NCBI GenBank assembly: GCA_031423615.1
Contig: JANPFV010000015.1
Span: 14,666 to 78,665, forward strand
Reading direction: 5' to 3'
Origin: Candidatus Omnitrophota bacterium
GTDB lineage: Bacteria; Omnitrophota; Gorgyraeia; Zapsychrales; JANLHA01
Length of the DNA: 64,000 bases
The translations under genes were made by a program, and so were the position numbers. This document shows, piece after piece, positions 6,534 to 45,808 of the stretch; positions within the stretch are counted from its first letter, which is position 1; each line of letters begins with the position of its first letter. The notes under the pieces are model-generated. The model made no database searches. It had not been told where the DNA came from and saw nothing but the letters and a program-made list of their open reading frames with translations.

Positions 6534-6535
6534 GT

Positions 6536-13868: not shown

Positions 13869-14765
13869 ATGGTTCCAAGTTCTGCACAATTATTATCGCA
13901 AGTTGCTGTTCCGCTGGACACCGATTACATCGGCATTTATCTGACCAATCGCTGCTTTTTATCCTGTCCTTATTGCATTACCAATTACAATGAACAATTT
14001 ATCAATTTAAAAATTTTTCGCGAGTTAGAACCCGACGAATGGATCGAGGCGTTGAACCGTTTGGTTCTGCCGCCGGGTGTGCCGTTGACATTTCAAGGAG
14101 GGGAACCTTTTATTTACAAAGGCATTTGGGAAATTTTAGAAAATATTCATCATAAGGTCGATATTCTGACCGCGCTTCCGCCGCAAGTCACCGTCGAAAA
14201 ATTTAAACAGCTCAAGAAGATGAACTGGCACCGCCGGGACGCCCCTTACCCAGCGATCCGGGTGAGTTATCATAAAGGCCAGAACGACTATAAGCAGCTC
14301 GTCGCTCGCATTAAGGAATTGCAGGAATTTTTAAGTATCGGTCTTTTTACCGTTGAACACCCGGCGTACCCGGAATTAATCGAAGAGGTTCGCGCTTATG
14401 CCAATGAGCATGGTGTAGAGTTTCGCACCAAATCTTTTTTAGGCGAATGGGAAGGAAAAACATACAGCCGTTACAAATATCCCGATGCCTGCGGCAGCCG
14501 TCCTATAAAAAAAAATGTCAGGTGTAAAAATACAGTCTTCCCGATCGGGCCCGATGGAAATATTTACCGCTGCCATTCGGATTTATATGGCCGCCGACAG
14601 GACATGGTCATTGGAAATCTAATGGATCCGGAATTAAAAATGGAGCACCGTCATCGCCATTGTGCTTTTTACGGGACGTGTATCCCCTGTGATGTCAAAA
14701 TCAAGACCAACCACCTTCAGCAAGACGGTTATACGTCGATTGATATTCTCTTCGAGGATGAGTAA
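13869..14765 (+). CDS. radical SAM protein
   Basis: Cx3Cx2C motif (CFLSCPYC) near the N-terminus; additional C-terminal cysteines (CHSD...HRHCAFYGTCIPCD). Confidence 0.6.
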   Translation: MVPSSAQLLSQVAVPLDTDYIGIYLTNRCFLSCPYCITNYNEQFINLKIFRELEPDEWIEALNRLVLPPGVPLTFQGGEPFIYKGIWEILENIHHKVDILTALPPQVTVEKFKQLKKMNWHRRDAPYPAIRVSYHKGQNDYKQLVARIKELQEFLSIGLFTVEHPAYPELIEEVRAYANEHGVEFRTKSFLGEWEGKTYSRYKYPDACGSRPIKKNVRCKNTVFPIGPDGNIYRCHSDLYGRRQDMVIGNLMDPELKMEHRHRHCAFYGTCIPCDVKIKTNHLQQDGYTSIDILFEDE

Positions 14766-15687
14766 TCCCAAAAGAATTCTCATAATCAAGACCGGATTTT
14801 CCGAGTTTCTTGATCGCGGCATCTCGACGACCGTGAGTCTGGGCGATGTGCTCTTTTGCACGGCGCTTTTGCATGTGTATAAGGATGACCATGTCACTTG
14901 GATGACGGCGTGGCCGGTCCGGGAGTTGTTGACGGCAAATCCTTTGATTGATGAGCTTTTGATTTTTGGTCCTAAAGTTTTCGAGGAAATCAAGAATCGT
15001 GAATTTGATATTCTGGTTAATTTGGAAAAAGACATCGGCATCTGCACCTATCTGAGCCAGATCAAAGCCAAGAAACGCTATGGATTTTATTTTAATGAAC
15101 GTCTGCACGATATCTCGACGTATAAACCATCCACGCGTTATCTGCTGGCTGGCCAGGAAAACCACCGTGGGGTGGACAAGAATTTTTTTGAGATTTTGTA
15201 TGAGACGGTCGGTCACAAGTGGCGGGGCCAAGGCGCTTGTTTGCCGGCGAGAAAAGTGCGCAAGGAAAGATTTGATTTTGGCTTTAATCACGCGGTCGGA
15301 TCCAAATGGCCGACCAAGGCGTGGTCGCAAGGGCAATGGAAAAAGTTGGAACACATTTTAGAAAAAAATTATACCATCAGTTGGCAGGAAGGATTTTCAA
15401 ACCTCAAGAAATATCAGGATTGGCTAAGTTCCTGCCGGGTCATTGTAACGTCCGATTCGTTGGGGCAAGTGCTGGGGCAGGCCTTGGGAAGAAAAGTCGT
15501 CAGTCTTTACGGTCCGACGGATTTCCGCCGGGTGAAAGGCATTCCCAATATTTTTCCGATCCCGGCGAAGATGGCGTGTCCGCATATGCCTTGCTATTTG
15601 TTAACCTGTAAACATCATCAATTTTGCATGGACACGATCATGCCGGAAGAAGTGGCCGAGGAGTGTCAAAGGGTCTTATCATCATGA
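14758..15687 (+). CDS. glycosyltransferase family 9 (heptosyltransferase-like)
   Basis: start set at the ATG at 14758 (MSNPKRILIIKTGFSEFLD..SLGDVLFCTALLHVYK), resembling the GT9 N-terminus; overlaps the previous gene by 8 nt. Confidence 0.6.
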   Translation: MSNPKRILIIKTGFSEFLDRGISTTVSLGDVLFCTALLHVYKDDHVTWMTAWPVRELLTANPLIDELLIFGPKVFEEIKNREFDILVNLEKDIGICTYLSQIKAKKRYGFYFNERLHDISTYKPSTRYLLAGQENHRGVDKNFFEILYETVGHKWRGQGACLPARKVRKERFDFGFNHAVGSKWPTKAWSQGQWKKLEHILEKNYTISWQEGFSNLKKYQDWLSSCRVIVTSDSLGQVLGQALGRKVVSLYGPTDFRRVKGIPNIFPIPAKMACPHMPCYLLTCKHHQFCMDTIMPEEVAEECQRVLSS

Positions 15688-16676
15688 AAAAAGTTTTCGT
15701 CACGGGTGGGGCCGGTTATGTCGGCGCGGTGCTGGTCCCTAAATTACTCAAGGCGGGTTATGAGGTCAAAGTGCTTGACCTTTATCTATATGGTGAGGAT
15801 GTTTTTCACGAATACAAATCCCACCCGCATCTTATCGAGATCAAAGGAGATCTTCGTGATGTCGCCTTGTTGGAAAGGGAAATCGCCGGCATGGATGCGG
15901 TCATTCATCTGGCCTGCATTTCTAATGACCCCAGTTACGAACTCAATCCCGCGCTCGGAAAGTCTATCAATTACGACGCTTTTCTGCCTTTGGTTGCCAT
16001 CGCCAAACAACACAAAGTGTCCCGTTTTATTTTTGCTTCCTCGTCGAGCGTTTATGGATTAAAAGATGATCCTCATGTCACGGAAGATCTTCCTTTGGCT
16101 CCCTTAACCGATTATTCCAAATACAAGGCGATGTGCGAGAAACATTTATTGGCAGAACAGGCTAAAGATTTTATCGTGGTCATTTTGCGTCCGGCCACGG
16201 TGTGCGGATATTCCCCGCGCCTGCGTTTGGATTTGACCGTCAATATTTTGACCAATCACGCTATCAACAAAGGACTGATCACCGTTTTCGGCGGAAAGCA
16301 AAAACGCCCCAATATTCACATTGAGGACGTCACGGATTTGTACGTGCAGACTTTGGAACTCCCCCCAGAGAAAATTGCCGGTCAGATTTTTAATGCCGGA
16401 TATGAAAATCATACCTTAGATGAGATTGCGGATATGGTCCGTCAGGTCATTAAAAATCCTCATCTTAAGATTGTCCATCAAACGACCGACGACAATCGGT
16501 CCTATCATATTTCATCAGAAAAAATCGGCCAGGCTTTGGGATTCCGTCCCCGCCATACAATTGAGCATGCGGTGGCCGATTTAAAGCAAGCCTTTGCGGA
16601 AGGTAAAATTCCGGATGCCATGACAGATTCGAAATATTACAATATTAAGACCATGCAGAAGATGGAATTGCAATGA
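15684..16676 (+). CDS. NAD-dependent nucleotide-sugar epimerase/dehydratase (extended SDR)
   Basis: start at MKKVFVTGGAGYVGAVLV (Gly-rich NAD site); YSKYKAMCE YxxxK motif; ATGA overlap. Confidence 0.8.
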   Translation: MKKVFVTGGAGYVGAVLVPKLLKAGYEVKVLDLYLYGEDVFHEYKSHPHLIEIKGDLRDVALLEREIAGMDAVIHLACISNDPSYELNPALGKSINYDAFLPLVAIAKQHKVSRFIFASSSSVYGLKDDPHVTEDLPLAPLTDYSKYKAMCEKHLLAEQAKDFIVVILRPATVCGYSPRLRLDLTVNILTNHAINKGLITVFGGKQKRPNIHIEDVTDLYVQTLELPPEKIAGQIFNAGYENHTLDEIADMVRQVIKNPHLKIVHQTTDDNRSYHISSEKIGQALGFRPRHTIEHAVADLKQAFAEGKIPDAMTDSKYYNIKTMQKMELQ

Positions 16677-18763
16677 ATTTGAAAGCCGCTCCGCGGGAGG
16701 ATATAAAGCAAAAAGATATCGTTTCGTTGTGGCGTTCCATGCTGCGGATCCGCCGGGTTGAGGAAAGGATCATTCTTCTTTATCCTCAGCAGGACATGCG
16801 CTGTCCGGTGCATTTGTGCATTGGCCAAGAGGCTGTGCCCGCTGGGATTTGTCATGTTTTATCGCCGGAAGATTTGGTGTTAAGCAATCATCGCGCCCAC
16901 GGTCACTACTTGGCCAAAGGCGGAAATTTAAAAGCGATGTTTGCAGAAATGTATGGCAAAGCCGGCGGCTGTTGTCTGGGTCGCGGCGGATCGATGCATT
17001 TGCTTGATTTGAAAGCCAACTTTTTAGGTTCAACGCCCATAGTGGGGGGCTCCATTCCTGTTGCGACCGGAGTGGCTTTCGCCGAGAAAATGCAGGCTAC
17101 CGGTAAAACCACCGTTGCCTTCTTTGGTGATGCCGCTGTCGAAGAAGGCGTCTTTCATGAAAGCCTGAATTTTGCCGCTTTAAAAAATTTATCCATTCTT
17201 TTTGTCTGTGAAAATAATTTGTATTCCGTTTATACGCCGCTCAATCAGCGTCAACCTCGTCGAGATATTGCCCAATTGGCCGCAGGACATGGTATCAAAA
17301 CCATCCGGGCTGATGGGAATGATATTTTTGCGGTTGTCGCGGCGGCGCAAAAGGCGCAAGAATATTTAGCCGCAGGCTGCGGGCCCGTCTTTTTGGAGTT
17401 TGCCACCTACCGCTGGCGGGAGCACTGCGGACCTAATGATGACAATGATTTAGGTTATCGCACTCCGGAAGAATTTTTAATTAAAAAAATGGAATGCCCT
17501 CTGGAGCGTTTAAAAGAATATATCGTTAAAGAAGACATTTTAAACGCAGCGCAGATCCAAGCCATGGAAGAAGACATCGCCGTTGAAATCGATGAGGCTG
17601 TTGCGTTTGCCAAGGACAGCGCTTATCCTGCGCAAGATGTTTCCTTAGAAGATGTTTATAGCCCATCGTTACCGGCCATACATACGGAAAGTCCAACTCG
17701 TGAGTTGACCTATAGCGCCGCGATCCGCGAAGCCACCGATCTTTTGCTGGCTTCTGATCCGAACATTTTTTTGATAGGCGAAGGTGTTCCCGACCCCAAA
17801 GGGATTTTTGGCACCACCGTCGGCTTGCAGAAAAAATATGGAGCCCAGCGGGTCATGGACATGCCGGTTTCCGAAAGCGGCATGACCGGCATTTGCATCG
17901 GCGCCGCCCTGCGCGGAATGAGGCCTTTGATGACCCATCAGCGTGTGGATTTTTCTCTGTTCGCTCTCGATCAAATTATTAACAATGCTGCAAAATGGTA
18001 TTTTATGTTTGGCAAAAAAGCTTCGGTACCGCTGGTGATCCGCATGATCATTGGTCGCGGGTGGGGACAGGGGGCGCAACATTCGCAGAATTTGGCTTCG
18101 CTTTTTGCCCACATTCCGGGATTAAAAGTCATCATGCCTGCGTTTGCCTGCGACGCAAAAGGAATGCTGATTGCGGCCGTGCGAGACAATAATCCGGTGC
18201 TGTGTTTGGAACACCGCTGGTTATACAATTTAAAATCCTTCGTTCCGACGGAAAGTTACACGATTCCTCTGGGGCAGGCGCAGGTGATCCGCCGTGGGGA
18301 TGACGCGACGGTTGTGGCCAGTTCCCATATGGTTATCGAGGCTCTCAAGGCCAGCCAAATTTTGGAAAAAGAAAATATTCATTTCGATGTGGTGGATTTA
18401 AGGACAATCAAGCCGCTGGATTATGAAACGATACGCGTTTCGCTTAAAAAAACCGGAAGGTTGATCGTTTTGGATTCCGGTTGGCCTTTTGCCGGTATCG
18501 GTTCTGAGATCATGGCCCGCGCCACCGAAGAGAATTTTAGCGACATGAAAACCGCTCCGCGCCGCGTGACCTTACCGGACATTCCGGTCCCGTCGGCAGC
18601 GGCTTTAACCAAGAATTTTTATCCCGGATTCCGGCAGATCGTAGAAAATATTTTATTGAGTTTGGGAAAAGAAATGACCGACATTGAGCAGATAGTGTCA
18701 CGCATTCCCGTCGAGCAAACACCGCACGACGTTCCTGACCCGACCTTTACCGGACCGTTCTAA
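16673..18763 (+). CDS. ThDP-dependent 2-oxoacid dehydrogenase E1 component, alpha and beta subunits fused in one polypeptide (696 aa)
   Basis: N-terminal half carries the E1 alpha ThDP-binding region (GQEAVPAGICHVL...NFLGSTPIVGGSIPVATGVAFAE); C-terminal half carries the E1 beta/transketolase-like region (VMDMPVSESGMTGICIGAALRGMRPL). Confidence 0.8.
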   Translation: MNLKAAPREDIKQKDIVSLWRSMLRIRRVEERIILLYPQQDMRCPVHLCIGQEAVPAGICHVLSPEDLVLSNHRAHGHYLAKGGNLKAMFAEMYGKAGGCCLGRGGSMHLLDLKANFLGSTPIVGGSIPVATGVAFAEKMQATGKTTVAFFGDAAVEEGVFHESLNFAALKNLSILFVCENNLYSVYTPLNQRQPRRDIAQLAAGHGIKTIRADGNDIFAVVAAAQKAQEYLAAGCGPVFLEFATYRWREHCGPNDDNDLGYRTPEEFLIKKMECPLERLKEYIVKEDILNAAQIQAMEEDIAVEIDEAVAFAKDSAYPAQDVSLEDVYSPSLPAIHTESPTRELTYSAAIREATDLLLASDPNIFLIGEGVPDPKGIFGTTVGLQKKYGAQRVMDMPVSESGMTGICIGAALRGMRPLMTHQRVDFSLFALDQIINNAAKWYFMFGKKASVPLVIRMIIGRGWGQGAQHSQNLASLFAHIPGLKVIMPAFACDAKGMLIAAVRDNNPVLCLEHRWLYNLKSFVPTESYTIPLGQAQVIRRGDDATVVASSHMVIEALKASQILEKENIHFDVVDLRTIKPLDYETIRVSLKKTGRLIVLDSGWPFAGIGSEIMARATEENFSDMKTAPRRVTLPDIPVPSAAALTKNFYPGFRQIVENILLSLGKEMTDIEQIVSRIPVEQTPHDVPDPTFTGPF

Positions 18764-19983
18764 TGAGCCCGTTGACGAAAATAGATTTTGATCAGTTTAC
18801 TGATATCGCCTTTACGACGAGAGCAGCGTGCGTGGTTTGCGACTCGCCTTGTGAGGAAGCGGTGATTGATTTGCCCCGTTTTCCTTTGACAGAAATTTTT
18901 GTCGAAGAAAAGATCGACTACGGTCTGGGTCTCGTAGACCAGAAATTCCACCTTTGCAACATTTGCGGGCATGGACAGCTGGCCCATCTCATTGATAAAA
19001 ATATTCTCTACGGGCATTGTTACCGGACACGCACTTCCGTAAGTCCCTCGGCGATCGGAGCGCTGGATGTTTTTAGGATTTTCATCGATAAAATTCTTGG
19101 AAACCATAAGGTCAAAACACTTTTGGAGATCGGTTGCAATGACCTTTATTTTCTTCAGAAGTTAAGGGACAAGGCGGACATTTTATATGGTATTGATCCG
19201 ATTCTTAAAGATCAAGATCAGACTGATGATAAAATCAAATTGATCGGCGATTTTTTTGAAAATGTAGACTTGCAGGCGGCGGGCATCCGGGCTGATATTA
19301 TTTTATCGAGCCACACCTTTGAGCATGTGGAGCGTCCGGCAGAGTTGTTGGAAAAATTGCTGGCCAGCGCCAGCGACGACGCCTTATTTTTTTTCCAGTT
19401 CCCGGGATTGGAGTCATTGGTCCGTGACGCCCGCTTTGACCAGATGTTTCATCAGCACCTGAATTACTTTTCTGAAAGTTCGATAGGATATCTTTTGAAG
19501 AAATTGGGTGCCGAGGTGATTGACATTCAAGTCAACCCGTATCACTGGGGGGCCTTGATGATTGCGTTTCGTAAAAAAAAGAATCCGGTAAATTCCGTCG
19601 GCGCCCCTGCGGTCAGCGCTAACTCAGTCAAACGCCAATATCAGGTTTTTAAAAACGGAATGACGGTGACGTCGGACAGACTGGCGGCTCTGGATAATGA
19701 ATCGCTTTATGGTTTTGGCGCCGCTCTGATGATGCCGGTTTTGGATTATTATCTTAACGGTTTGCGGCGGATCAAATACATCATTGACGATGACAAGCAC
19801 AAAGAAAATTTATTTTATTTGAATTTTCCCGTACAAATTAAAGGAACACAACAGATCAAAAATATAAAGGACGCCGTGATTGTGCTGACAGCAATATATT
19901 CTTTGACGGCCCAGCGCGCGATTCTAAAGAAATTGATCGATATGAAAATCAAGCAGATCATTCTCCCTATCAATCTCGTTTAA
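18763..19983 (+). CDS. NDP-hexose C-methyltransferase-like protein (N-terminal zinc ribbon plus class I methyltransferase)
   Basis: CVVCDSPCEE...CNICGHG zinc-ribbon-like N-terminus; about 410 aa, as in TylC3/EryBIII-type sugar C-methyltransferases; LLEIGCNDLYFLQKL SAM motif. Confidence 0.55.
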   Translation: MSPLTKIDFDQFTDIAFTTRAACVVCDSPCEEAVIDLPRFPLTEIFVEEKIDYGLGLVDQKFHLCNICGHGQLAHLIDKNILYGHCYRTRTSVSPSAIGALDVFRIFIDKILGNHKVKTLLEIGCNDLYFLQKLRDKADILYGIDPILKDQDQTDDKIKLIGDFFENVDLQAAGIRADIILSSHTFEHVERPAELLEKLLASASDDALFFFQFPGLESLVRDARFDQMFHQHLNYFSESSIGYLLKKLGAEVIDIQVNPYHWGALMIAFRKKKNPVNSVGAPAVSANSVKRQYQVFKNGMTVTSDRLAALDNESLYGFGAALMMPVLDYYLNGLRRIKYIIDDDKHKENLFYLNFPVQIKGTQQIKNIKDAVIVLTAIYSLTAQRAILKKLIDMKIKQIILPINLV

Positions 19984-20011
19984 GAAAATAAAGAAGGCAT
20001 GAGGTAGGCCC

Positions 20012-20806
20012 ATGGACTTAGGGATAAAAGGCAAAAAAGCTTTGGTCACGGGTGGTGCGTCGGGGATAGGACAGGCTATTGCCATGGATTTGGCCAAGGA
20101 AGGCGTGAAAGTTTTCATAACGTCCCGTGAGGATGCGAAATTGAAAAAGGCCATGACAATGTTAGGCGGTAAAAAGGCAGGGCACAGTTTCTTGAAATGT
20201 GACATTGCCGATGACCAGGGTCCTGAGAAACTAATCCAAGTCCTGCACAAAGATTTTGGCCATCCGGATATTGTCGTTAATAATGTGGGCAGCGCCTTTG
20301 GCATCACGGACCCTTATTGTCCGACGAGCGATTGGAGAAAGTTTTTCCGTTTGAATTTTGAAGTGGCTGTTGAGATCAATAATCTTTTGCTCCCGCACAT
20401 GAAAAAACAAAACTGGGGTAGGATTGTGACAATCACATCCGGCGCGGCGTTAGAAAACAGCGGGCCGGTGCCGTATTGCGCGGCCAAGGCGGCTTTGGGC
20501 GCTTATACCCGTTCCATGGGCCGCGTTCTCGCAACAGAAGCTCAGAATGTTGTCATGACCGCCGTCATGCCCGGCGTTGTTTTAACGGAAGGCGGACATT
20601 GGGAACATGTTTTAAAGGAGCGTCCTGAGCATGCAGAAAAGTATTTACGGGAAAGATCTCCTCTGGGCCGTTTTGGAAAAACCAGCGAGATCAGTCCCAT
20701 GGTTATTTTTTTATGTTCAAAAATGGCGAGTTTTTGTCACGGGGCGATTGTTCCTGTCGATGCTGGCCAAGCCAAACATTTTATGTCTTTTAATTATTTG
20801 TCTTAA
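20012..20806 (+). CDS. short-chain dehydrogenase/reductase (classical SDR)
   Basis: ALVTGGASGIGQAIA; YCAAKAALGAY (YxxxK). Confidence 0.85.
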   Translation: MDLGIKGKKALVTGGASGIGQAIAMDLAKEGVKVFITSREDAKLKKAMTMLGGKKAGHSFLKCDIADDQGPEKLIQVLHKDFGHPDIVVNNVGSAFGITDPYCPTSDWRKFFRLNFEVAVEINNLLLPHMKKQNWGRIVTITSGAALENSGPVPYCAAKAALGAYTRSMGRVLATEAQNVVMTAVMPGVVLTEGGHWEHVLKERPEHAEKYLRERSPLGRFGKTSEISPMVIFLCSKMASFCHGAIVPVDAGQAKHFMSFNYLS

Positions 20807-20814
20807 GGACTGTC

Positions 20815-23840: not shown

Positions 23841-23964
23841 ATAATTTCTTTCAGGTTTTAGACGAACATCCTCGTGTTAAATTTAAATTTCTTGTGGGCT
23901 TTATTGTTTGAGTGGGTGTTGTATGGGTGGCTTTATAAAAGAATAATACGGATGCGTATTTATT

Positions 23965-25874: not shown

Positions 25875-25875
25875 A

Positions 25876-26652: not shown

Positions 26653-27377
26653 TGGAAAATATTTTAAAAAGCTCCGGTTTGGTTTTAGTCGATGCCGTCA
26701 ACTATAATCGTTGGCAGTATGATCAGTTGCGTCCGCATGTTGGGAAAAAAGTTTTAGAAATCGGCTGTGGTCTGGGAAATCTGACGCAATATCTGAGAGA
26801 AGACGCAGAATTCCTTTTTTCAACGGATACGCGACCGGAAGCCGTAGAGTTTATGCGGGAACGTTGTCCTGCGACGGAAGAATTTGAGGTTCGGTGCGCG
26901 GATATTTTTAACGAGACGTCGGTGTTGCCCCACCCGCCTTTTTTTGACACCATTGTTTTTTCTAATGTGCTCGAGCACATCGAAGATGATGTTAAGGCCA
27001 TGAAGATGTGCGCAGACATCTTGCGGCCGACCCAAGGCAAACTTTTATTACTGGTGCCGGCCCATCCGTTTTTGTACGGTACACTGGATGCCGAAAGCGG
27101 ACATTACCGCCGTTATTCCAAAAAAGAAATCATCCGGTTGGCCGGGCTCGCCCATTTTAAAATCATTGATCTTTATGCTTTTAATATGACCGGCGCCTTG
27201 GGATGGTTTTTGAATTATTGTGTTTTGCGACGCAAAGGAAGCCATAATTCAACGCAAGATACCCAAGTGAGTTTTTTTGACCGTTATTGTGTGCGACCCT
27301 GCCGGTTTATAGAAGAAAAAATCCGGCCGCCCGTGGGGATTTCTTATATCGCCATTATGCAAGCCAAGGAGTTTTAA
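26652..27377 (+). CDS. class I SAM-dependent methyltransferase
   Basis: VLEIGCGLGNLTQYL motif I; start moved from the TTG at 26640 to the ATG at 26652. Confidence 0.75.
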   Translation: MENILKSSGLVLVDAVNYNRWQYDQLRPHVGKKVLEIGCGLGNLTQYLREDAEFLFSTDTRPEAVEFMRERCPATEEFEVRCADIFNETSVLPHPPFFDTIVFSNVLEHIEDDVKAMKMCADILRPTQGKLLLLVPAHPFLYGTLDAESGHYRRYSKKEIIRLAGLAHFKIIDLYAFNMTGALGWFLNYCVLRRKGSHNSTQDTQVSFFDRYCVRPCRFIEEKIRPPVGISYIAIMQAKEF

Positions 27378-28790: not shown

Positions 28791-30411
28791 AAACAAGATC
28801 ATCGGGGCTCTTTTTTTGGCCTTAGCCCTGTTTATAAATCCTTTGATTTTAAAACAGCTGTACCAGCACAATATTATTTTCGGTGAACTTTTTTTGGCCC
28901 TGGCCTTTTGTTTTTATTTTCGTCTTCCTCCGGTCAACAAAAAGTCGGTGGGGTTTTTTGAATATCTGGTCAATCGACACGGTTGGGTTTTGTTATTGAT
29001 CCAGGCCGTTTTATTTGTGGTTTATCTTGTGTTGAAAAAGGACTTCTTAACATATTCCCTGCATGCGGGATGGGGTGATGAACCCAGTTATACGGGATTT
29101 GATTTTTCGTCTTGGAAATCTGTCCTGGGGAACCACCGTACAGCAGGCTTGCCACTTATTATTCAGATGTATCACCTCCTATTCAAGGACTTTACGCTCT
29201 GGCCTTATCTGCAAATGGTTTGTTATATTTTATCGGTTTGTTATCTTTATTGGAGCTTTTTGAAATTTGGACTTAACCGGATTTTGGCGTTATTCGTCGT
29301 GTCGTTCTTGCTTTGGGATCCGACCATTTACCGGGAATTCTTGAATGTGCAGACGGAAGTTTTTGCAGCGGTTTTTGTTAATGTTGCGATCGGTAGTTTT
29401 TTTTGGGCGATGCGGGAATGGAATTGGAAATCAATCTTTGCGTTGACGTTCGGAGTGTTCTTTCTTTATCAAATACGCCCGAATTTTTCTTTTATGACCT
29501 TATTGATTCCTTTATGGGCCGCAGCCATTTTAGTCCTTACACAAAAATCCGCTGGACCGACGACACGAGGAACGATTCTAAAACTTTCGGCCTGCACAAT
29601 TTTGCCTTTGATATTATTCTGTGGCCTTCGTCTGGCGGTGGTGGGGCAATTCGGAGTTGTGTCTATGAGCGGAGGGTGTCTCTCTGGCCATGCGGTTCAT
29701 TATTTGAATGAGCAAAATGTCCAACAATTGTCCGGCGATGTTCGGGTCTTGGCGGATGAAATTTTGCTTCGTAAACGTCAATTAACGCCCCCGCATAATC
29801 TTTCACCATTCGACTGGATTCAGCCGCTTTCTGATCATAAAAAAATTGAAATGGAAGCGCAGGCGTTTGGTCCCGACTTGATGACGGCCTGGAATGTGGG
29901 AATCAAACAGCTCCGGGGGCTTGAGCCGACGAATGATCCCCAAAAAAATATTGAACCGGAAAAATATACATTGACCTTGTCGGGATTTTACGGACGCAAT
30001 TATAATTTTGAAACCGACCGTTTATTATCCCGGTTTTCTGTGGCGATTTTAAGCCGGGAATGGAAGCGCTATGTCCATTGGTTGGTGGGAGGGAGCTTTT
30101 ATGCTCTGAGGCTTTATCTGGACTCGCAAGCCTTCAGCCTCACTTGCCTCGGGCTTTTGGTTATTGCAAAATTAATTTTTCTTTTGTTCGGGGACATTGA
30201 TGCGGCGCAGTTGAAACGCTGGCACCGTGATACAGGAATTCTCTTTATGATCGGCTTCAGCCTTTTTGTCGGCGGTTTGGTCCCTATTATTGTTTTTAAT
30301 TTTCCTTTTGCCCGTCTGATGAATGTGATCAGTTTTTATTTGGTGCCGGTTCTATTTTGTTTGGCCCTTCCACCATTTTGGTTAACAAAGAAAAGTCTGC
30401 CCCATGCCTGA
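28768..30411 (+). CDS. polytopic membrane protein (547 aa), candidate glycan polymerase or GT-C-type transferase
   Basis: more than ten hydrophobic segments; no soluble catalytic motif recognised. Confidence 0.5.
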   Translation: MPGLMENKNKIIGALFLALALFINPLILKQLYQHNIIFGELFLALAFCFYFRLPPVNKKSVGFFEYLVNRHGWVLLLIQAVLFVVYLVLKKDFLTYSLHAGWGDEPSYTGFDFSSWKSVLGNHRTAGLPLIIQMYHLLFKDFTLWPYLQMVCYILSVCYLYWSFLKFGLNRILALFVVSFLLWDPTIYREFLNVQTEVFAAVFVNVAIGSFFWAMREWNWKSIFALTFGVFFLYQIRPNFSFMTLLIPLWAAAILVLTQKSAGPTTRGTILKLSACTILPLILFCGLRLAVVGQFGVVSMSGGCLSGHAVHYLNEQNVQQLSGDVRVLADEILLRKRQLTPPHNLSPFDWIQPLSDHKKIEMEAQAFGPDLMTAWNVGIKQLRGLEPTNDPQKNIEPEKYTLTLSGFYGRNYNFETDRLLSRFSVAILSREWKRYVHWLVGGSFYALRLYLDSQAFSLTCLGLLVIAKLIFLLFGDIDAAQLKRWHRDTGILFMIGFSLFVGGLVPIIVFNFPFARLMNVISFYLVPVLFCLALPPFWLTKKSLPHA

Positions 30412-31060
30412 GATGGATCTGTTAAAACATTACCCGCGCACTCATCGTAATCTGGAAGAACGTTTGCAACAGAAGACGGCAGAAGCCCGCCGTGTAGCTC
30501 GGGAGTTTGGAAAGGATTTCTTTGATGGAGACCGCAAATATGGTTATGGCGGGTTTTCTTACCATCCGAGATTCTGGCAGCCCGTCGTGCCGGATTTTCA
30601 AAAATATTATGGACTGACCAGCAAAACTTTTCTTCTCGACGTGGGTTGTGCTAAAGGATTCATGCTCCATGATTTTAGACAAATGATCCCGGGAATCAAT
30701 GTTTGCGGAATCGATGTTTCGCCTTACGCCATCGAAAATGCTCTCGGCGATATTAAACCCTTTGTGAAAGTCGCCAGTGCCGAGACCCTGCCTTTTGCCG
30801 ACAAATCTTTTGATCTGGTCATTTCGATTAATACGATTCATAATCTTCCAAAGAAAGCTTGTCTGCGGGCCCTGGGCGAAATTCAACGGGTGAGCCGCGG
30901 GCGGGCGTTTATTACCGTCGATGCGTATCGCACGCCGGAAGAGAAAAAACGGATGGAAGCCTGGAACCTTACCGCTAAAACCTATATGCATGTCGAGGAA
31001 TGGAAAATATTTTTTAAAAAAGCCGGATACACGGGTGATTACTTTTGGTTTATCCCTTAA
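30404..31060 (+). CDS. class I SAM-dependent methyltransferase
   Basis: LLDVGCAKGFMLHDF motif I; FDLVISINTIHNL. Confidence 0.75.
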   Translation: MPEMDLLKHYPRTHRNLEERLQQKTAEARRVAREFGKDFFDGDRKYGYGGFSYHPRFWQPVVPDFQKYYGLTSKTFLLDVGCAKGFMLHDFRQMIPGINVCGIDVSPYAIENALGDIKPFVKVASAETLPFADKSFDLVISINTIHNLPKKACLRALGEIQRVSRGRAFITVDAYRTPEEKKRMEAWNLTAKTYMHVEEWKIFFKKAGYTGDYFWFIP

Positions 31061-31061
31061 C

Positions 31062-32081
31062 ATGAAAACAAAAGCCGCGATTTTGGTTGAGTTGAATAAA
31101 CCGCTTGTCGTTGAGGACATTGACATCCCGGTTCTTTACGACGGACAGGTTTTGGTGCGCGTTTTAGCGAGCGGCATCTGCCGCAGTCAATTGAATGAAT
31201 ATGGGGGTTTGAAAGGTCCCGACCCGTATTTGCCGCACCTGTTGGGCCATGAAGGCGCGGGGATTGTCGAGGCGACAACATCGTCGGTGAAGAAAGTGAA
31301 GGCCGGAGATTATGTGGTCATGACATGGATCAAAGGCCAGGGCCAAGATGTGGCCGGATCGCAATACCGCTGGGGAAAGAAAACCGTCAATTCAGGTGCG
31401 ATCGCAACCTTGACCGAATACGCCGTTGTTGCGGAAAACAGGGTGGTCAAGATTTCTAAAGCTGTGCCGCCGGCGGAAGCGAGTCTTTTGGGATGCGCGG
31501 TCCCGACGGGTAGCGGGATGGTTTTAAACACATTGAATGTTAAGAAAGGAACCTCCCTCGCGGTGTTCGGGGTGGGAGGAATTGGGGCCGCCGCGATTTT
31601 AGCGGCTAAATTTTCCGGCTGTTCGACGATTGTGGGTGTCGATGTTTCTGAACGGAAATTGGAATTCGCCTCCGAATTAGGGGCGACCCACGGGTGCAAG
31701 AGCGGCCAGAGTGCAAAGGAATTTATAAAAAGGGTCGGGAAAATGGATTATGTCATTGAGTCGTCCGGCCGTAAAGAAGCCATGGAGCTGGCCTACACTT
31801 GGGTCAAGGATACGGGCACGCTCGTCATTGCGGGGAATTTATCTAAAGGACAAAAGGTGGCGATTGATCCTTTTGATTTGATCAAAGGCAAAAGAATCGT
31901 CGGAACATGGGGAGGGGAGACCGTCCCCGACCGTGATATTCCGCAATACAGCCGCGCCTATTTGCGGGGAGATATTCCCTTAACGAAATTGATCACCCAC
32001 CGTTTTGCGTTAAAGGACATTAATCCAGCTTTTGCCATGTTGAATTCCGGACGGGCCGGACGCGTGATTATTGAATTTTGA
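31062..32081 (+). CDS. zinc-type (MDR) alcohol dehydrogenase
   Basis: GHEGAGIVEA zinc/substrate motif; GVGGIGAAAILAAK Rossmann motif; start set at MKTKAAIL. Confidence 0.8.
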   Translation: MKTKAAILVELNKPLVVEDIDIPVLYDGQVLVRVLASGICRSQLNEYGGLKGPDPYLPHLLGHEGAGIVEATTSSVKKVKAGDYVVMTWIKGQGQDVAGSQYRWGKKTVNSGAIATLTEYAVVAENRVVKISKAVPPAEASLLGCAVPTGSGMVLNTLNVKKGTSLAVFGVGGIGAAAILAAKFSGCSTIVGVDVSERKLEFASELGATHGCKSGQSAKEFIKRVGKMDYVIESSGRKEAMELAYTWVKDTGTLVIAGNLSKGQKVAIDPFDLIKGKRIVGTWGGETVPDRDIPQYSRAYLRGDIPLTKLITHRFALKDINPAFAMLNSGRAGRVIIEF

Positions 32082-32094
32082 AAAAGGAGCTAAA

Positions 32095-32844
32095 GTGAGC
32101 CAAGGGATTACCGTTGTTGTTGCGGCATTTAATGAAGAAGAAAATATCGCTGCGGCGATTGACAGTGTGCATGAAGGATTTAAGGGGTACGCACAGGATT
32201 ATGAAATTTTGGTGGTCAATGACGGGAGTGAGGATGACACCGGCGCCATTGCCGAAGCGCAGGCCCAAAAGGATCCCCGTCGCGTTCGCGTTGTGCATAA
32301 TGACCGCAATCGAGGCAATGCCTACAGTCTTTATCGCGGTTATCAGCTGGCCGCGCAAGAATATGTTACGGTTTTCCCCGGGGATAATGATCTCTCGCCT
32401 TTTTATCTTCGGGATTTTTTGGCCCATAGGGGCAGCGCTGACATTCTTATGACCTACATGTTAAGCATGCAAAACCGTCCTTGGCACCGCCGCGCTCTTT
32501 CGCGGTCGTTTGTTGTTCTTCTTAATACCCTTTTTGGTCTGAAACTGAGAAATTATAATGGGGCGCCGCTTTATCGCAGCACCGATATTCGCGCCCTTAA
32601 GGTGAGATCCTCGCAAGGCATGACTCTTCTCGCCGAGTGCCTTGTCCGTTTGATCAAGTCCGGCGCAACATATAAAGAAATTCCCAGCGATTTCATCGGG
32701 CGCAAGGGCGGTCAATCCCGCGCTTTACGTTTTAGAAATTTTATCGAATGCTTCCAGGTCATCAGTTGCCTCATCTGGGATGTGTGCATCCGCAGAAAAC
32801 CACGAGGGGAACTCGCGTTTGTGGATAATCCTCTGAAATCTTAA
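32095..32844 (+). CDS. GT2 polyprenyl-phosphate sugar synthase-like glycosyltransferase (DPM1/GtrB-like)
   Basis: GTG start 5 nt after an AAGGAG RBS; VVVAAFNEEENI...VVNDGSEDDT. Confidence 0.7.
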   Translation: MSQGITVVVAAFNEEENIAAAIDSVHEGFKGYAQDYEILVVNDGSEDDTGAIAEAQAQKDPRRVRVVHNDRNRGNAYSLYRGYQLAAQEYVTVFPGDNDLSPFYLRDFLAHRGSADILMTYMLSMQNRPWHRRALSRSFVVLLNTLFGLKLRNYNGAPLYRSTDIRALKVRSSQGMTLLAECLVRLIKSGATYKEIPSDFIGRKGGQSRALRFRNFIECFQVISCLIWDVCIRRKPRGELAFVDNPLKS

Positions 32845-32847
32845 CTC

Positions 32848-35040
32848 ATGTTCTTACATTTTCTAAAATTCTTTATCCCGATTGGACTTTGGCTTTATCT
32901 TTTCCGTGACCTGTTGAGCGGGGCCGCGCCTCTGCAAACCGAGCCCTTTGCCGATCTCGCCATTTTAAATTTTTATCTCACTCATTTGCGATTGGGAATT
33001 GTCCCGTTATGGAATCCCTTTCTCTTTTGGGGTTTCCCGTGGGAAATTCTTTTGACCTATGTGGGTTTTGCCAATCCCATCTGGCTTCTGACGGTTTTTC
33101 TTAATGCATTCGGAATAAAGTTCTATTTTGCCTTCGTTTATACGATTGTGGCTTATTTTCTCATCGGGCAAGCCGGATTTTACTTTCTGGCCCACGCCCT
33201 TTTTAAAGAAACCAAAACGGCCTACATTGCCTTTTTATTTTTATTATTTTCTTCGGTGGGCCTGGTGAGCTTAGTCCAGCTCAATATGCTTTTGATTTTT
33301 GTGCCGGCGGTGTGGTTTTTTTATTTTGCGCTGCGATGGACCCGGCGTTGGGACATCACGTCCTGGCTAGGAATTGTTTTTACCCTGATGCTGGTGAACC
33401 AGGCGTATTTGCCTTTTTACTTTGTGACTTTAGCCGGATTGGCGGCCCTGTTTTGGGGAATTGTTTATGCTCGGGCGGCCTTAAATATTTTCATTGCGGC
33501 TTTGCAATTCGGTAAAAGAAATATTTTTATTGTCATTTTAAGTTTGATAGTTTTGGGTGTGACCTTTATTCCTTCCTATTTCGCGTACCGGAATACGGCG
33601 ACCCACGAAGTGGTACTGCCGTGGCGCCAAAAGGGAATGGATGTGTGGACCAAGGGATCGCATTTTGGGGATTATGATAAAACCACAGAGGGAAGCTTGA
33701 GCAGCCGCATGTCGATCGACGATCTTTATTCAAATGTCGACCAACTGCTTTATGCGAATGATGGATTTGTTTATCTTTCGGGATTTGCTTTCTTGATTCT
33801 GCTTCTGGGAGCGTTTAACCGGCTTAACCGGCGGGTGACATTTTTGGGATTACTTTTTTTAAGTCTCTTCTTTCTTAGTCTGGGGAACGCCACACCGGTG
33901 CACAGATTTTTTTATGAACATGTTTTTTATTTTAAGATGATGCGCAATATGCATTTCTTTCTTCCTTTCTTTTTGGCGGTGTTGGTGTTGTTGACGGCTG
34001 AACAAGCCCGAGGCTTGCTACAGCTTCCGGAGCAAATGAATCGACGACAAAAGTGGCTCGCCTGCGGGATCATCCTGCTCATTCATGGCGGATGCTGGAT
34101 ATTTCTCTCCAGCAAAAAGAATGTCAGCCCCGTGGCTTATGAAACGATCAGTTTGAGTTTTATTTTTGGGATCTTCACCGTATGGTCGGTTTTAAAAAAG
34201 AATGGATATGGACAAGCCTTATTTTTATTCGGCTGTATTGTTTTTCATCCGATTTATGTGCTCAATGGACACAATCAATTAGCCGCAGAAAAGCCGGCTC
34301 CAACGATTACAAAAGGAATGCAGGCCAGAGTCAGCGTTCCGCAATTTTCGTTTACGCGTAATTCTCCGGTGCTGCCGCAAAAGGCAACCGGGGAAGATAA
34401 CTTGAACCCTTTTTATTTTGACTATTTTTTCATGACCGATGTGCTTCCTCATTCCCGGACGTGGCCGTTGTGTTCGCCGGCATTCTGGTCCTATTATCTT
34501 TCTCGAAACGTCCCCGAAAATATTTTGCAGGACTATGCCCGCTATAAATTTGTTGTTTATGATTCCGTGAAGGTGGTCCCGGATGATAAGGAAAATATTT
34601 TGCCACTGATCAAGGGCTTGGAAGGAAAAATCAATATGGCTTTTGTTGCCGAAGACCGGCCGGAAACAAAAAAGGAGCTGGACGCTTTCATAAAGAATCG
34701 GGTCGTATCATCGCAGGCTATATTCATCAGCGCGGCTTCCCCGGAATTGGCCGTAAAACATTTCACTCCCAACGTTGTCCGCTTGACGACAAATTTTAAG
34801 AATGAAAAGTTTTTGGTTTATAACGACAGCTATATGAAAGCCTGGCAGGCGAAGTGTGACGGAGTACGGATTCCTCTCTATCGCGCGAATGGGGCATTCA
34901 AAGGCGTGATTTTAGCGGCGGGACATCATGAAATAGAGTTTGCGTATCGTCCTCTGGGATGGAGCAGGCTGGCAGGGATTATTTTGATTTTGTATTGGAG
35001 TATGTTTGTTATTTTATTAATCAGATTGCGAAAATCATGA
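32848..35040 (+). CDS. large polytopic membrane protein (730 aa) with a C-terminal extracytoplasmic domain; GT-C/YfhO-like candidate
   Basis: N-terminal region of about 450 aa with many TM segments, then a soluble region of about 280 aa; its position right after a DPM1-like GT2 matches the lipid-linked sugar synthase plus GT-C pairing. Confidence 0.5.
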   Translation: MFLHFLKFFIPIGLWLYLFRDLLSGAAPLQTEPFADLAILNFYLTHLRLGIVPLWNPFLFWGFPWEILLTYVGFANPIWLLTVFLNAFGIKFYFAFVYTIVAYFLIGQAGFYFLAHALFKETKTAYIAFLFLLFSSVGLVSLVQLNMLLIFVPAVWFFYFALRWTRRWDITSWLGIVFTLMLVNQAYLPFYFVTLAGLAALFWGIVYARAALNIFIAALQFGKRNIFIVILSLIVLGVTFIPSYFAYRNTATHEVVLPWRQKGMDVWTKGSHFGDYDKTTEGSLSSRMSIDDLYSNVDQLLYANDGFVYLSGFAFLILLLGAFNRLNRRVTFLGLLFLSLFFLSLGNATPVHRFFYEHVFYFKMMRNMHFFLPFFLAVLVLLTAEQARGLLQLPEQMNRRQKWLACGIILLIHGGCWIFLSSKKNVSPVAYETISLSFIFGIFTVWSVLKKNGYGQALFLFGCIVFHPIYVLNGHNQLAAEKPAPTITKGMQARVSVPQFSFTRNSPVLPQKATGEDNLNPFYFDYFFMTDVLPHSRTWPLCSPAFWSYYLSRNVPENILQDYARYKFVVYDSVKVVPDDKENILPLIKGLEGKINMAFVAEDRPETKKELDAFIKNRVVSSQAIFISAASPELAVKHFTPNVVRLTTNFKNEKFLVYNDSYMKAWQAKCDGVRIPLYRANGAFKGVILAAGHHEIEFAYRPLGWSRLAGIILILYWSMFVILLIRLRKS

Positions 35041-36026
35041 ATAGAAAAAAATCTAGCCTGTGGATCAAGCTCGTTGAGTGGACCCTGGGCCGGTGTCTGT
35101 TTTTGTACATGCTCTTGATCGGGGCGAGTCTCGTTTTAATCGACCGTCATACGGTGTTGAACAACCGGATGAATTTTTTGCTCCAGAATGAAGCCAGCGT
35201 CAAGGCTTTTTCCGTCGGGAGAGTACCGATCGACTATAGTGCTTTTAAAATGGCGGTCCGTTATTATACTGAGTTGCGAAGATTTGCTCCTAGAGATGGG
35301 CTACTCTGTGGCAATCAAGGTTTTTGCTATTACCATTTAGGCCAGAAGCAGCAGGCCTTGGAAATGTATCAAAAGGCCCTTATGCTGGAGCCTACTTGCG
35401 GCCCTTTGCAGCTGGATTTAGCGACGATGTTTTTTGAAATAGGGTGGCAGGAAAAGGCCGCGGTCATTTGGAGTAATTATTTAGAGAATAAAGAATCTAT
35501 AAAAAGATATTGCGAGGCTTTAAGAGGCCAGTTGCGGCTCATAAAAAGGGAGGATGTTCTTTTTCTTATCGACGATATGGAAAAAAGTTTTGTCGTCGAT
35601 GAGCGAGAGACGTATATCAAATTGAGCGAAGCGTATTTTTTACTGCAAAAATATTCGCTGGCTGCCGAAACCGCACTGGCGGGTCTGAAGCGTTTTCCTC
35701 AAAACCGCTGGTTGAATTTTGTCGCCGGGTTTTCACGCTACAAAGAAAGCCGTTGGACAGAAGCGGCCGGCTATTTTAGTGAAGCGATCAAAAGTGAGCC
35801 GCACGACATCAATTCTTATTATTATCGTTCTTTGTGCATGCAAAGTTTAGGAGAACCGCAAAAATTTCTGCAAGATCTTAGCCACGTCAAACAATTGCAC
35901 GCCCGCGGAGTTAGCCCTTTCCCTTTTCCTAAAGGGGATGCGGCTTTGCACTTTGATACTGAAGTCTTATTTATTCGGTATCATTTGCAAGATGCAGGAA
36001 AGCTGGAGCGTAACCGTTCGCAATAA
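35037..36026 (+). CDS. TPR-repeat protein with N-terminal TM anchor
   Basis: start at MNRKKSSLWIKL; N-terminal hydrophobic segment CLFLYMLLIGASLVLI; repeated A/Y/L spacing (MYQKALMLEP, YFSEAIKSEP). Confidence 0.6.
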   Translation: MNRKKSSLWIKLVEWTLGRCLFLYMLLIGASLVLIDRHTVLNNRMNFLLQNEASVKAFSVGRVPIDYSAFKMAVRYYTELRRFAPRDGLLCGNQGFCYYHLGQKQQALEMYQKALMLEPTCGPLQLDLATMFFEIGWQEKAAVIWSNYLENKESIKRYCEALRGQLRLIKREDVLFLIDDMEKSFVVDERETYIKLSEAYFLLQKYSLAAETALAGLKRFPQNRWLNFVAGFSRYKESRWTEAAGYFSEAIKSEPHDINSYYYRSLCMQSLGEPQKFLQDLSHVKQLHARGVSPFPFPKGDAALHFDTEVLFIRYHLQDAGKLERNRSQ

Positions 36027-36161
36027 GCTTTTCTGAAATGAGCGATAATATTTTCGCGGACCGCAGGCCAGCGCGATGCAATATATGCCTAGCTATTTGA
36101 CAGGGAATTACTTATCTGTTAAATTTTTTACAGTAACAATTATTACAGCCCATAGGAGATT

Positions 36162-45796: not shown

Positions 45797-45808
45797 AAGG
45801 AGCAAATT

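Follow-up and report, generated by a model that had tools for sequence, protein, structure and literature searches.

In a stretch of 64,000 nucleotides (nt) from Candidatus Omnitrophota bacterium (contig JANPFV010000015.1; hereafter the window) we found an operon of 19 tightly packed genes, g01 to g19, which probably encodes one pathway of envelope-glycan decoration, put together from five modules that recur in other genomes. The most likely products of the operon are one or two methylated, carbon-branched sugars of an unusual kind, which would be loaded onto a lipid carrier and attached outside the cytoplasm. Its catalytic families are all of known types; their combination has not been described before. 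New are the presence of two classes of thiamine diphosphate (ThDP)-dependent branching enzymes together with a C-methyltransferase in a single envelope-glycan operon, the breadth of the cassette centred on one of them, an E1-type enzyme, and its link to heptose genes, a family of glycosyltransferases (GTs) of the GT-C fold that lacks a Pfam model and belongs to a fixed five-gene module, and the conserved pairing of a YfhO-type GT-C with a tetratricopeptide repeat (TPR) protein.

The 19 open reading frames (ORFs) occupy positions 13869–36026, all on the + strand, and tile this region without interruption in the ORF listing of the window, as expected from an initial annotation of the sequence that had described a co-directional operon of overlapping genes. 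Start codons were set from alignments to homologues in related loci. With these starts, 12 of the 18 junctions are overlaps of 1–23 nt, four of them of the ATGA type; gaps of 0–8 nt occur at five junctions, and only two gaps are larger (28 nt and 124 nt). The listing contains no intergenic ORF of ≥ 100 amino acids (aa) inside the cluster.

Families were assigned with Pfam and NCBIfam, followed by PDB and fold searches, and 18 of the 19 initial family calls stood. The exception was a supposed third class I S-adenosylmethionine (SAM) methyltransferase, which turned out to be a pyridoxal phosphate (PLP)-dependent aminotransferase (g08), so that only two plain class I methyltransferases are left (26640–27377 and 30404–31060). 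Pfam and NCBIfam agreed on the extended short-chain dehydrogenase/reductase (SDR) epimerase, the 4,6-dehydratase-like and RmlD-like proteins, the classical SDR, the medium-chain dehydrogenase/reductase (MDR) and the FAD oxidoreductase; Pfam likewise recovered the radical SAM enzyme and both ThDP enzymes, one an E1 fusion and the other of the acetolactate synthase (ALS) family. Annotation with hidden Markov models thus kept the logic of a sugar pathway, and the initial idea of a lipid-linked, decorated sugar transferred in the periplasm is supported.

ThDP enzymes among sugar-tailoring genes

The core cassette consists of g03, g04, g09, g15 and g16. In the 696-aa product of g04 (16673–18763), the alpha and beta parts of a ThDP-dependent E1 enzyme are fused (alpha-KADH2 type; Pfam E1_dh, Transket_pyr and Transketolase_C); the nearest PDB sequences are the E1 alpha and beta subunits of pyruvate dehydrogenase (PDH) and branched-chain 2-oxoacid dehydrogenase (BCKDH). 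We propose, by analogy with AviB1/AviB2 and KbDH, that g04 C-acetylates a keto-sugar. Two extended SDRs accompany it. g03 (15684–16676) is a GalE-like epimerase/oxidoreductase of nucleoside diphosphate (NDP)-sugars (Pfam Epimerase, E 2e-37; NCBIfam GalE, 110 bits; motifs SSSSVYG and YSKYK), and g09 (23965–24957) is related to NDP-hexose 4,6-dehydratases (Pfam GDP_Man_Dehyd, E 2e-48; NCBIfam dTDP-glucose 4,6-dehydratase at 225 bits, under the 365-bit cut-off). The latter carries the motifs SSPEVYG and YAASK; S[ST]PEVYG is kept in 24 orthologues from E1 loci, the RmlB counterpart being TDEVYG. The cassette is completed by a class I SAM methyltransferase (g15, 30404–31060; Pfam Methyltransf_11, _25 and _31) and a zinc-type alcohol dehydrogenase/ketoreductase of the MDR superfamily (g16, 31062–32081; Pfam ADH_N and ADH_zinc_N). 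The mechanical ORF of g16 starts at 30921; homologues favour a start near 31062, where an ATG lies 1 nt past the g15 stop, in that their alignments begin at residue 45–51 of the long ORF in most loci and at residue 1 in locus L085.

To place these genes, relatives of E1 were collected by a pattern scan of one genome per species, which returned at least 584; the best 80 with 10-kb flanks, together with one archaeal contig, make up the set of 81 loci used below (related loci are cited by L number). Families co-occurring with E1 were detected by tblastn of the window proteins and by grouping all neighbouring ORFs into clusters. Of the 81 loci, 60 have extended SDRs of the g03/g09 type near E1: g03 homologues within 10 kb in 52, and g09 homologues, which usually adjoin E1, in 44. 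Homologues of g15 (40–67% identity) are found near E1 in 37 loci (30 in the lowest count) and those of g16 in 19–21. The genes of the second branching module described below are rarer, with the C-methyltransferase in 14–16 loci, the YerE-like enzyme in 14–15 and the g06 SDR in 11–13. E1 itself could be classified in 73 loci; its alpha and beta parts have a gene each in 52 of these and are fused in 14.

The hosts are diverse. E1 loci occur in Omnitrophota, Planctomycetota, Chlamydiota, Verrucomicrobiota (an Akkermansia-labelled metagenome-assembled genome), Desulfobacterota, Nitrospirota and Magnetococcales, and further in Prochlorococcus, SAR11, Alphaproteobacteria such as Roseibium, Chloroflexota, Patescibacteria, Woesearchaeota and Nitrosotalea; Akkermansia and Chlamydiales are among the named hosts of the core cassette, and its cultivable carriers include Roseibium marinum DSM 17023 (L057) and Pseudodesulfovibrio karagichevae (L014). 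Relatives of the E1 of the window carry Planctomycetales (78% E1 identity) and Omnitrophota labels.

A second branching module follows g04. The 406-residue product of g05 (18763–19983; Pfam Methyltransf_23, E 3e-17) had been called a sugar C-methyltransferase-like protein, and it does match TcaB9-type sugar 3-C-methyltransferases: PDB hits were TcaB9, a sugar 3-C-methyltransferase and a mycarose 3-C-methyltransferase (E ∼1e-17), the alignment to TcaB9 covering residues 20–278 at low identity (E 6e-18). This TylC3/TcaB9-type protein has an N-terminal Cys4 zinc ribbon (C23/C26/C65/C68, in CxxC pairs 23–26 and 65–68). Methyltransf_13 scored 27.8 bits, just under its gathering score of 31.3; the C-terminal Methyltransf_14 domain was not detected with Pfam, and the PDB alignments end at around residue 280 of 406. 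Next come a classical SDR ketoreductase (g06, 20012–20806; Pfam adh_short and adh_short_C2, E ∼1e-40) and g07 (20815–22614), a ThDP carboligase of the decarboxylase/ALS superfamily with three TPP_enzyme domains (N, M and C, E ∼1e-33 to 1e-36) and a canonical GDG motif (GDGSMQFN). The comparison with yersiniose-type clusters that had been suggested at the outset was informative: g07 scored 422 bits against JanthE (8rph) and 285 bits against PpYerE (5ahk), whereas the best acetohydroxyacid synthase (AHAS) reached 251 bits. By sequence, g07 is YerE-like, much closer to JanthE/YerE than to true acetolactate synthases, and g06 appears to be its YerF-like partner. An SDR of the g06 type also stands directly upstream of the YerE-like enzyme in L002, L067, L080 and L088, and the triad of C-methyltransferase, SDR and ThDP enzyme is kept in L002, L018, L067, L080, L083 and L088. 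In L018, L051 and L083/L086, a split transketolase replaces the YerE-like enzyme after the pair of C-methyltransferase and SDR.

The last gene of this module, g08 (22602–23840), encodes a class I/II PLP aminotransferase that is Asp-aminotransferase-like and not DegT-type (Pfam Aminotran_1_2, E 1e-73; NCBIfam GntC and archaeal Asp-aminotransferase at ∼345 bits, both under cut-off). An orthologue is present in L088. In the closest relative (L002 15912–17127, identical to L082 2835–4050) the g08 orthologue is split into ORFs of 186 and 212 aa, either through a frameshift or pseudogene formation or through an assembly error.

The names given to such genes by annotation pipelines would place the ThDP enzymes, the aminotransferase and the SDR in primary metabolism (acetoin/pyruvate dehydrogenase E1, acetolactate synthase and branched-chain amino acids) among glycan genes, a reading that we find hardly credible. 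The best NCBIfam names are indeed PDH E1 subunits and acetolactate synthase, and one PDH E1 beta subfamily model is passed narrowly by g04 (328.7 versus 321 bits); all E1 equivalog models and every NCBIfam acetolactate synthase equivalog nevertheless stayed under cut-off, and g07 is far nearer JanthE/YerE than AHAS. Moreover, a Pfam/NCBIfam search of all window ORFs of ≥ 150 aa, the scope of the window-wide domain searches throughout, detected no E2 (lipoyl acyltransferase), no E3 and no ALS small subunit, so that the bona fide acetoin/PDH enzyme with E2/E3 partners considered in the initial annotation is not supported. Sugar-nucleotide enzymes neighbour E1 in the 81 loci, and no E2/E3-like family was recognized among the 30 commonest neighbour families, of which the commonest were scanned against NCBIfam and the others judged by eye. 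In different phyla, E1, g07, g06 and g05 are found together with sugar enzymes, and the junctions in the operon show translational coupling with adjoining sugar genes. We therefore rejected primary-metabolism roles for the ThDP enzymes on scores and context.

At the head of the operon, g01 (13869–14765) encodes a radical SAM enzyme of 298 aa (Pfam Radical_SAM, E 4e-11) with a CX3CX2C motif at C29/C33/C36. Six more conserved C-terminal Cys residues, seen in the alignment, are probable ligands of auxiliary Fe-S clusters; the PDB, searched with a profile, returned only generic N-terminal matches to SPASM/MoaA proteins. The overlapping g02 (14758–15687; 8-nt overlap) belongs to the GT9 family of GT-B glycosyltransferases, the heptosyltransferase family (Pfam Glyco_transf_9, 35 bits versus a 22-bit cut-off), and its profile matched the GT9 structure 3tov over residues 26–307 (282 residues; E 6e-13) as well as WaaF and WaaC. 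The two genes are invariably together, and the pair is kept in L002, L003, L060, L063 and L083.

Among E1 neighbours without a counterpart in the window, two are commonest: a bifunctional HldE-like nucleotidyltransferase/heptose kinase, and an isomerase of the GmhA type. The HldE-like gene occurs in 41 of the 81 loci (25 of the 39 with full flanks); its median distance to E1 is 1.8 kb, and 35 of 38 cases share the strand of E1. The GmhA-like gene occurs in 28 loci. GmhB, DegT-type aminotransferases, an RfbF-like cytidylyltransferase and B12-radical SAM enzymes recur near E1 too; L016 (Akkermansia) and L044 (Prochlorococcus), for example, combine GmhA, an HldE-like gene and GmhB. In the related loci the core cassette probably acts on an NDP-heptose scaffold. 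Together with the GT9 enzyme, these loci suggest an NDP-heptose as the starting sugar of the operon, a tentative assignment to which we give somewhat less than an even chance. A literature search for heptose in connection with ThDP branching returned nothing relevant. As to the proteins themselves, the HldE-like gene usually adjoins that of the GmhA-like isomerase, at most ∼2 kb from the E1 genes, and in many E1 loci its product has the nucleotidyltransferase at the N-terminus and the PfkB kinase at the C-terminus, the reverse of E. coli HldE.

Gene order, family memberships, the GT-C fold prediction given below, the conservation of the modules and the negative searches for E2/E3 and Wzx/Wzy genes are observations; from them we infer every substrate and product, in which order the steps run, that the scaffold is a heptose, which lipid carries the sugar and what accepts it. 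The acceptor could be lipopolysaccharide (LPS), another envelope polymer or an envelope protein. The starting sugar would probably come from housekeeping genes. The core cassette would convert its nucleotide form into a keto-sugar, and the ThDP-bound hydroxyethyl carbanion derived from pyruvate would attack the ketone to give a C-acetyl branch that is later reduced and/or methylated. Through g05 and g07, a C-methyl group and a second acyl branch, derived from a 2-oxo acid, would be added; g06 would reduce the acyl branch, as YerF does in yersiniose synthesis, and g08 might either supply the 2-oxo-acid donor or aminate the branch ketone. g01 and g02 may couple a cytoplasmic GT-B transfer to a radical modification.

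GT2/GT-C modules and the lipid-carrier question

The second half of the operon holds two pairs of a small GT2 and a polytopic GT-C. The initial annotation had listed a GT9, two GT2s, a YfhO-type GT-C, a 547-aa polytopic protein and a TPR protein; all were recovered, and the 547-aa protein can now be given a predicted fold. This protein is the product of g14 (28768–30411), the last gene of what we call module D (g10–g14), and it has no Pfam or NCBIfam match. Its model is predicted to adopt a GT-C fold and matches GT-C enzymes rather than Wzy or WaaL, the best structural match being PMT, with AftA, AftB and AftD among the others. An invariant Asp104 (GDEPSY) lies in the first predicted outer loop, as in the catalytic loops of GT-C enzymes, and RTxGxP and YQxRPN are further motifs. 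A word-sharing search yielded 14 homologues, and an exhaustive profile search yielded 853 representatives at E ≤ 1e-3, of which 375 at E ≤ 1e-30. In a sample of the family, eight of ten members had no Pfam match and two had sub-threshold matches to PMT or PMT_2; g14 hence belongs to a moderately large GT-C family that is not modelled by Pfam.

Module D begins with g10 (24954–25874), an RmlD-like SDR (Pfam RmlD_sub_bind, E 2e-30), followed by g11 (25876–26652), a small GT2 of 258 aa without a transmembrane (TM) helix (Pfam Glycos_transf_2). An NCBIfam ArnC match over residues 22–229 (E 7e-7) leads us to propose g11 as the polyprenyl-phosphate glycosyltransferase of the module. g12 (26640–27377) is a NodS-like class I SAM methyltransferase (Pfam Methyltransf_11, _12, _23 and NodS), and g13 (27378–28790) encodes an FAD enzyme that falls into the amine-oxidase/GR2 superfamily (Pfam matches Amino_oxidase and NAD_binding_8; the NCBIfam model PRK07208 gave 144 bits, under cut-off). 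In a PDB profile search, 28 of the 31 matches of g13 were UDP-galactopyranose mutases (UGMs; E ∼1e-6, residues 3–167); Pfam GLF gave no match, which places g13 outside the UGM family as modelled there; it may act as a mutase or as an oxidase. We judged its likeness from hhalign and PDB profile searches, the AlphaFold2 model from the single sequence having a pLDDT of 33.

The order RmlD-like protein, GT2, NodS-like methyltransferase, FAD enzyme and GT-C is the same in the window and in L082, L083/84, L085 and L090, and the block is kept down to 39% identity of the GT-C. On the groundwater contig L090 (9762–16550), module D is directly followed by genes for two YfhO paralogues (871 and 891 aa) and a 489-aa protein without a Pfam match; GT-C genes multiply within these clusters.

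Module E (g17–g19) contains the second pair. g17 (32071–32844) encodes a GT2 of 257 aa, again without a TM helix (Pfam Glycos_transf_2, E 4e-21). It had been described as a DPM1/GtrB-like enzyme placed before YfhO, and its matches to DPMS and ArnC, weak as they are (E 1e-6 to 2e-8), extend over the whole catalytic domain of g17: near-full-length PDB alignments were obtained only with PfDPMS (residues 10–229) and ArnC (residues 12–235), that with the GtrB protein sll0501 covers residues 12–161, and NCBIfam PgfS and ArnC matched as well. The 730-aa product of g18 (32848–35040) is a GT-C membrane glycosyltransferase of the YfhO family (Pfam YfhO, 32.9 bits versus a 28.5-bit cut-off); hydropathy gives ∼13 TM segments, then a large C-terminal domain outside the cytoplasm and one last TM helix, and most of its 40 homologues contain PF09586, some of them being named YfhO and coming from Omnitrophota. 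The start of g19 (35037–36026) overlaps the g18 stop in an ATGA. Its product is a TPR protein (Pfam TPR_1, TPR_2 and other TPR models) whose TPR domain is predicted to be periplasmic because of a basic N-terminus and a single, N-terminal TM helix. In L086/L087 and L088 the YfhO-TPR pair is kept and again follows the sugar genes found here. L088 retains the order GT2, YfhO, TPR, with GT2 and YfhO adjacent; L086/L087 have two GT2 genes ∼2 kb upstream of YfhO-TPR, separated from the pair by a methyltransferase and an MDR gene.

With two GT2/GT-C modules, there are probably two lipid-linked sugars and not one. In module D, g11 would load a sugar onto polyprenyl phosphate, g13, g10 and g12 would tailor it before or after loading, and g14 would transfer it on the periplasmic side. 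In module E, g17 would make a second polyprenyl-P-sugar for transfer by g18, the acceptor probably being selected by g19. If the acceptors are periplasmic or surface proteins, the two GT-C enzymes would act in the manner of PMT, TMTC or TfpW, with the TPR protein recruiting them. Such protein O-glycosylation, to which both the best match of g14 (PMT) and the presence of a TPR partner point, is unlikely as the actual function, and is best seen as a plausible special case of envelope-glycan decoration in which the acceptor is specified.

Consistent with the initial annotation, no Wzx, Wzy, Wzz or ABC transporter/exporter was detected among the window ORFs, nor was an initiating phosphoglycosyltransferase or a nucleotidyltransferase. 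A flippase and initiating genes must be sought elsewhere in any case, and this is one reason to weigh a conventional O-antigen or capsule locus, in which the GT2s and the GT9 would build a repeat unit on undecaprenyl diphosphate (Und-PP), the polytopic proteins would serve as polymerase and ligase equivalents, and Wzx and the initiating transferase would be encoded elsewhere. That both GT2s are soluble, that a GT-B transferase (the GT9) is present and that Wzx-like and ABC genes occur in some distant E1 loci fits this arrangement. The GT-C folds and the GT2/GT-C pairing, however, make a classical O-antigen locus improbable, more so than protein O-glycosylation, and we continue to favour lipid-linked sugars attached outside the cytoplasm.

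Membrane-protein genes without a counterpart in the window are found in close relatives (L002 6697–9874, L083 3115–7114, L085 3915–6068 and 13368–14431). They include two small membrane proteins, of ∼170 and ∼185 aa, that are conserved as a pair and have no Pfam match, and a polytopic membrane protein of ∼700 aa; these are candidates for the missing flippase and an additional GT-C.

Several observations count against the pathway as drawn here. The PDB matches of g11 and g17 are weak (E 1e-7 to 1e-9), both proteins lack the C-terminal TM helices typical of GtrB, CsbB and ArnC, and they could be ordinary cytoplasmic GT2s. No ORF for a small flippase of the GtrA, GtcA or ArnE/F type was detected in the operon or, among ORFs of ≥ 150 aa, in the 64-kb window. 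GmhA, HldE-like proteins and GmhB, sought in the window and its closest relatives (L002, L003, L083/L086), were found only in more distant loci; because genes for GmhA, HldE and a nucleotidyltransferase are absent from the cluster and these relatives, the case for a heptose leans on the more distant loci and on the GT9. In module D, the alignment with E. coli RmlD shows the catalytic Tyr of g10 replaced by His (EHGRQK), a change present in all four close module-D orthologues, while more distant homologues retain Tyr, and hhalign of g13 with E. coli Glf gave a probability of 93.7% over residues 1–155 only. Finally, g09 retains the Glu of the RmlB TDE triad and is without its Asp. Dehydratase chemistry is for this reason unproven, and SDRs of the g09 type may be C4-oxidases or GMD-like dehydratases rather than RmlB-type enzymes.

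Boundaries of the operon and the adjacent PKS

On its 5′ side the operon is bounded by a divergent AsmA-family gene (10922–13768, − strand), and on its 3′ side by a 135-nt gap before a polyketide synthase (PKS) gene. A promoter-like site, TTGACA-17-TAAATT, lies within this gap at 36097–36125; a terminator scan found no convincing terminator at the end of the operon, and Rfam and tRNA scans of the window found no RNA family or tRNA. An AmiC-type amidase and a glutamate racemase are also encoded 5′ of the operon (5520–7348, with the AsmA-family gene at 10922–13768), neighbours that would be compatible with a diderm envelope. The remaining genes of the window are housekeeping, signalling and glycogen genes.

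The PKS (36162–43592, + strand; 2476 aa) is a PfaA-like type I fatty acid synthase/PKS with the domains KS-AT-ACP-KR-DH, a stretch of ∼450 aa without a domain assignment and a 4HBT hotdog thioesterase. Since it begins 135 nt downstream on the same strand, and since sugar branching by E1-type enzymes and split transketolases is known mainly from natural-product clusters (PMC12247030), the sugars might be attached to its lipid, yielding a glycolipid or glycosylated polyketide comparable to those of heterocyst-glycolipid clusters. This is very improbable. The cluster lacks a downstream PKS in L082, L086/L087 and L088, and none of the loci examined yielded a PKS homologue; the GC content falls from 0.46 to 0.38–0.42 across the PKS, which has its own promoter-like site, and GT-C enzymes work outside the cytoplasm. 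With synteny not conserved in the relatives, we rejected the PKS-linked glycolipid: the downstream PKS is not part of the glycan system. Directly after the PKS, the + strand encodes a 7TM-GAF histidine kinase (43616–45796), a 180-aa protein without a Pfam match (46167–46709) and a protein with two receiver domains (46719–47489); the kinase/receiver genes (43616–47489) may regulate the PKS or envelope genes.

In one relative (L002 1125–3212), a protein with a PEP-CTERM sorting tail and an insertion sequence (IS)-type transposase are encoded upstream of the cluster, which suggests that the cluster is mobile or part of a variable surface island.

Comparison with known branching and glycosylation systems

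Both ThDP classes of the operon are familiar from other settings. YerE/YerF and ErwE/ErwF build acyl-branched sugars of LPS (PMC9306805), JanthE is a characterised YerE-like aldehyde-ketone carboligase (PMC12188165), and C2-branching of keto-sugars is an established activity of E1-type alpha-KADH2 enzymes (PMC12247030, PMC4753412). According to a 2025 review, YerE-like ThDP branching belongs mainly to LPS, the E1 type to ∼120 clusters, mainly of specialised natural products with antimicrobial activity, and split transketolases to 13 cases, all in Streptomyces and mainly for antimicrobial natural products (PMC12247030). That review does not describe two ThDP classes side by side in an operon, and its summary is narrower than the distribution of E1 seen here: E1-type enzymes are found in envelope-glycan clusters across many phyla, also in archaea and in abundant lineages of the sea and the gut, often beside heptose-activation genes, and they can share an operon with a YerE-like enzyme; split transketolases are found in some of these clusters.

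Taken together, the modules could be read as a scheme for an as yet undescribed route in which the E1-type enzyme and a YerE-like enzyme or split transketolase act successively on the same nucleotide sugar, along with the C-methyltransferase, and give a doubly carbon-branched, probably heptose-derived sugar that is delivered to the cell surface by the Pfam-less GT-C, with the flavoenzyme, the SDR-like protein and the methyltransferase acting on the lipid-linked intermediate. We offer this scheme as a whole as a possibility about which we are rather doubtful. The wider occurrence of E1-type enzymes in envelope-glycan clusters would, if confirmed, point to a widespread and chemically undescribed class of branched surface sugars and provide new carboligases for making tertiary alcohols; it would also add a GT-C family with fixed partner enzymes, one that Pfam does not model and that comprises several hundred clusters at 50% identity. 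The names E1, ALS and transketolase that pipelines give to these genes mislead their annotation.

Compared with the yersiniose/erwiniose enzymes YerE/ErwE and with JanthE, g07 has the same three-domain architecture, and the pairing of YerE with YerF is mirrored by the SDR g06 directly upstream of g07, with g09 as a putative keto-sugar-forming SDR in the same operon. The CDP-glucose pathway genes of the yersiniose system (RfbF and E1/E3 of the 3-deoxygenation) are absent from the operon, and g07 has a GDG motif where JanthE has CDG. Unlike in YerE systems, g07 is coupled to a TcaB9-type C-methyltransferase and co-occurs with a second ThDP enzyme, of the E1 type. The C-methyltransferase itself shares the Cys4 zinc ribbon and the SAM domain with the 3-C-methyltransferases TylC3, TcaB9 and MtfC, which differ from g05 in their Methyltransf_14 domain.

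With AviB1/AviB2 (avilamycin), Pau11/Pau12 (paulomycin), AlmDI/DII (aldgamycin) and KbDH-alpha/beta (kibdelomycin), g04 shares the E1 alpha and beta domains; like these pairs, to which we liken it by domains and context, it stands among NDP-sugar tailoring genes with no E2/E3 detected. Acetyl branches made by this class are reduced, methylated and aminated (PMC12247030), and the operon has a reductase, methyltransferase and aminotransferase. It differs in that the two subunits are fused, that the host is an uncultured bacterium of Gram-negative type from the PVC (Planctomycetota–Verrucomicrobiota–Chlamydiota) group, and that g04 lies in an envelope-glycan operon instead of an antibiotic cluster, being partnered in related loci by GmhA and HldE-like genes.

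The transfer modules resemble the three-component systems CsbB/GtcA/YfhO, GtrA/B/C, ArnC/ArnEF/ArnT and GacI/J/K/L; glycosylation systems of this kind with YfhO have been reviewed (PMC8035078). g17 and g18 likewise place a small GT2 directly before a GT-C, g11 and g14 form a second GT2/GT-C pairing within module D, and the predicted logic is the same: synthesis of a sugar on undecaprenyl phosphate (Und-P), flipping, and periplasmic transfer. In contrast to those systems, the GT2s of the operon have no TM helices, a GtrA-, GtcA- or ArnE/F-type flippase gene is missing, and YfhO has a membrane-anchored TPR partner; the second GT-C, g14, for which Pfam has no model, is accompanied by tailoring genes of FAD, SDR-like and methyltransferase type.

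Module D, where a putative lipid-carrier GT2 and a GT-C stand together with a flavoenzyme and an SDR-like protein, is similar to the decaprenyl-phosphate arabinofuranose route formed by DprE1/DprE2 and the GT-C enzymes Aft/Emb, and UGM is the closest solved relative of g13, over its first ∼155 residues only. In contrast to DprE1, g13 is not a member of the FAD_binding_4 family, g10 is without the catalytic Tyr, and a UbiA-type phosphoribosyl pyrophosphate (PRPP) transferase is lacking. The resemblance of module D to the DprE1/Aft and UGM routes is one of logic, not of membership.

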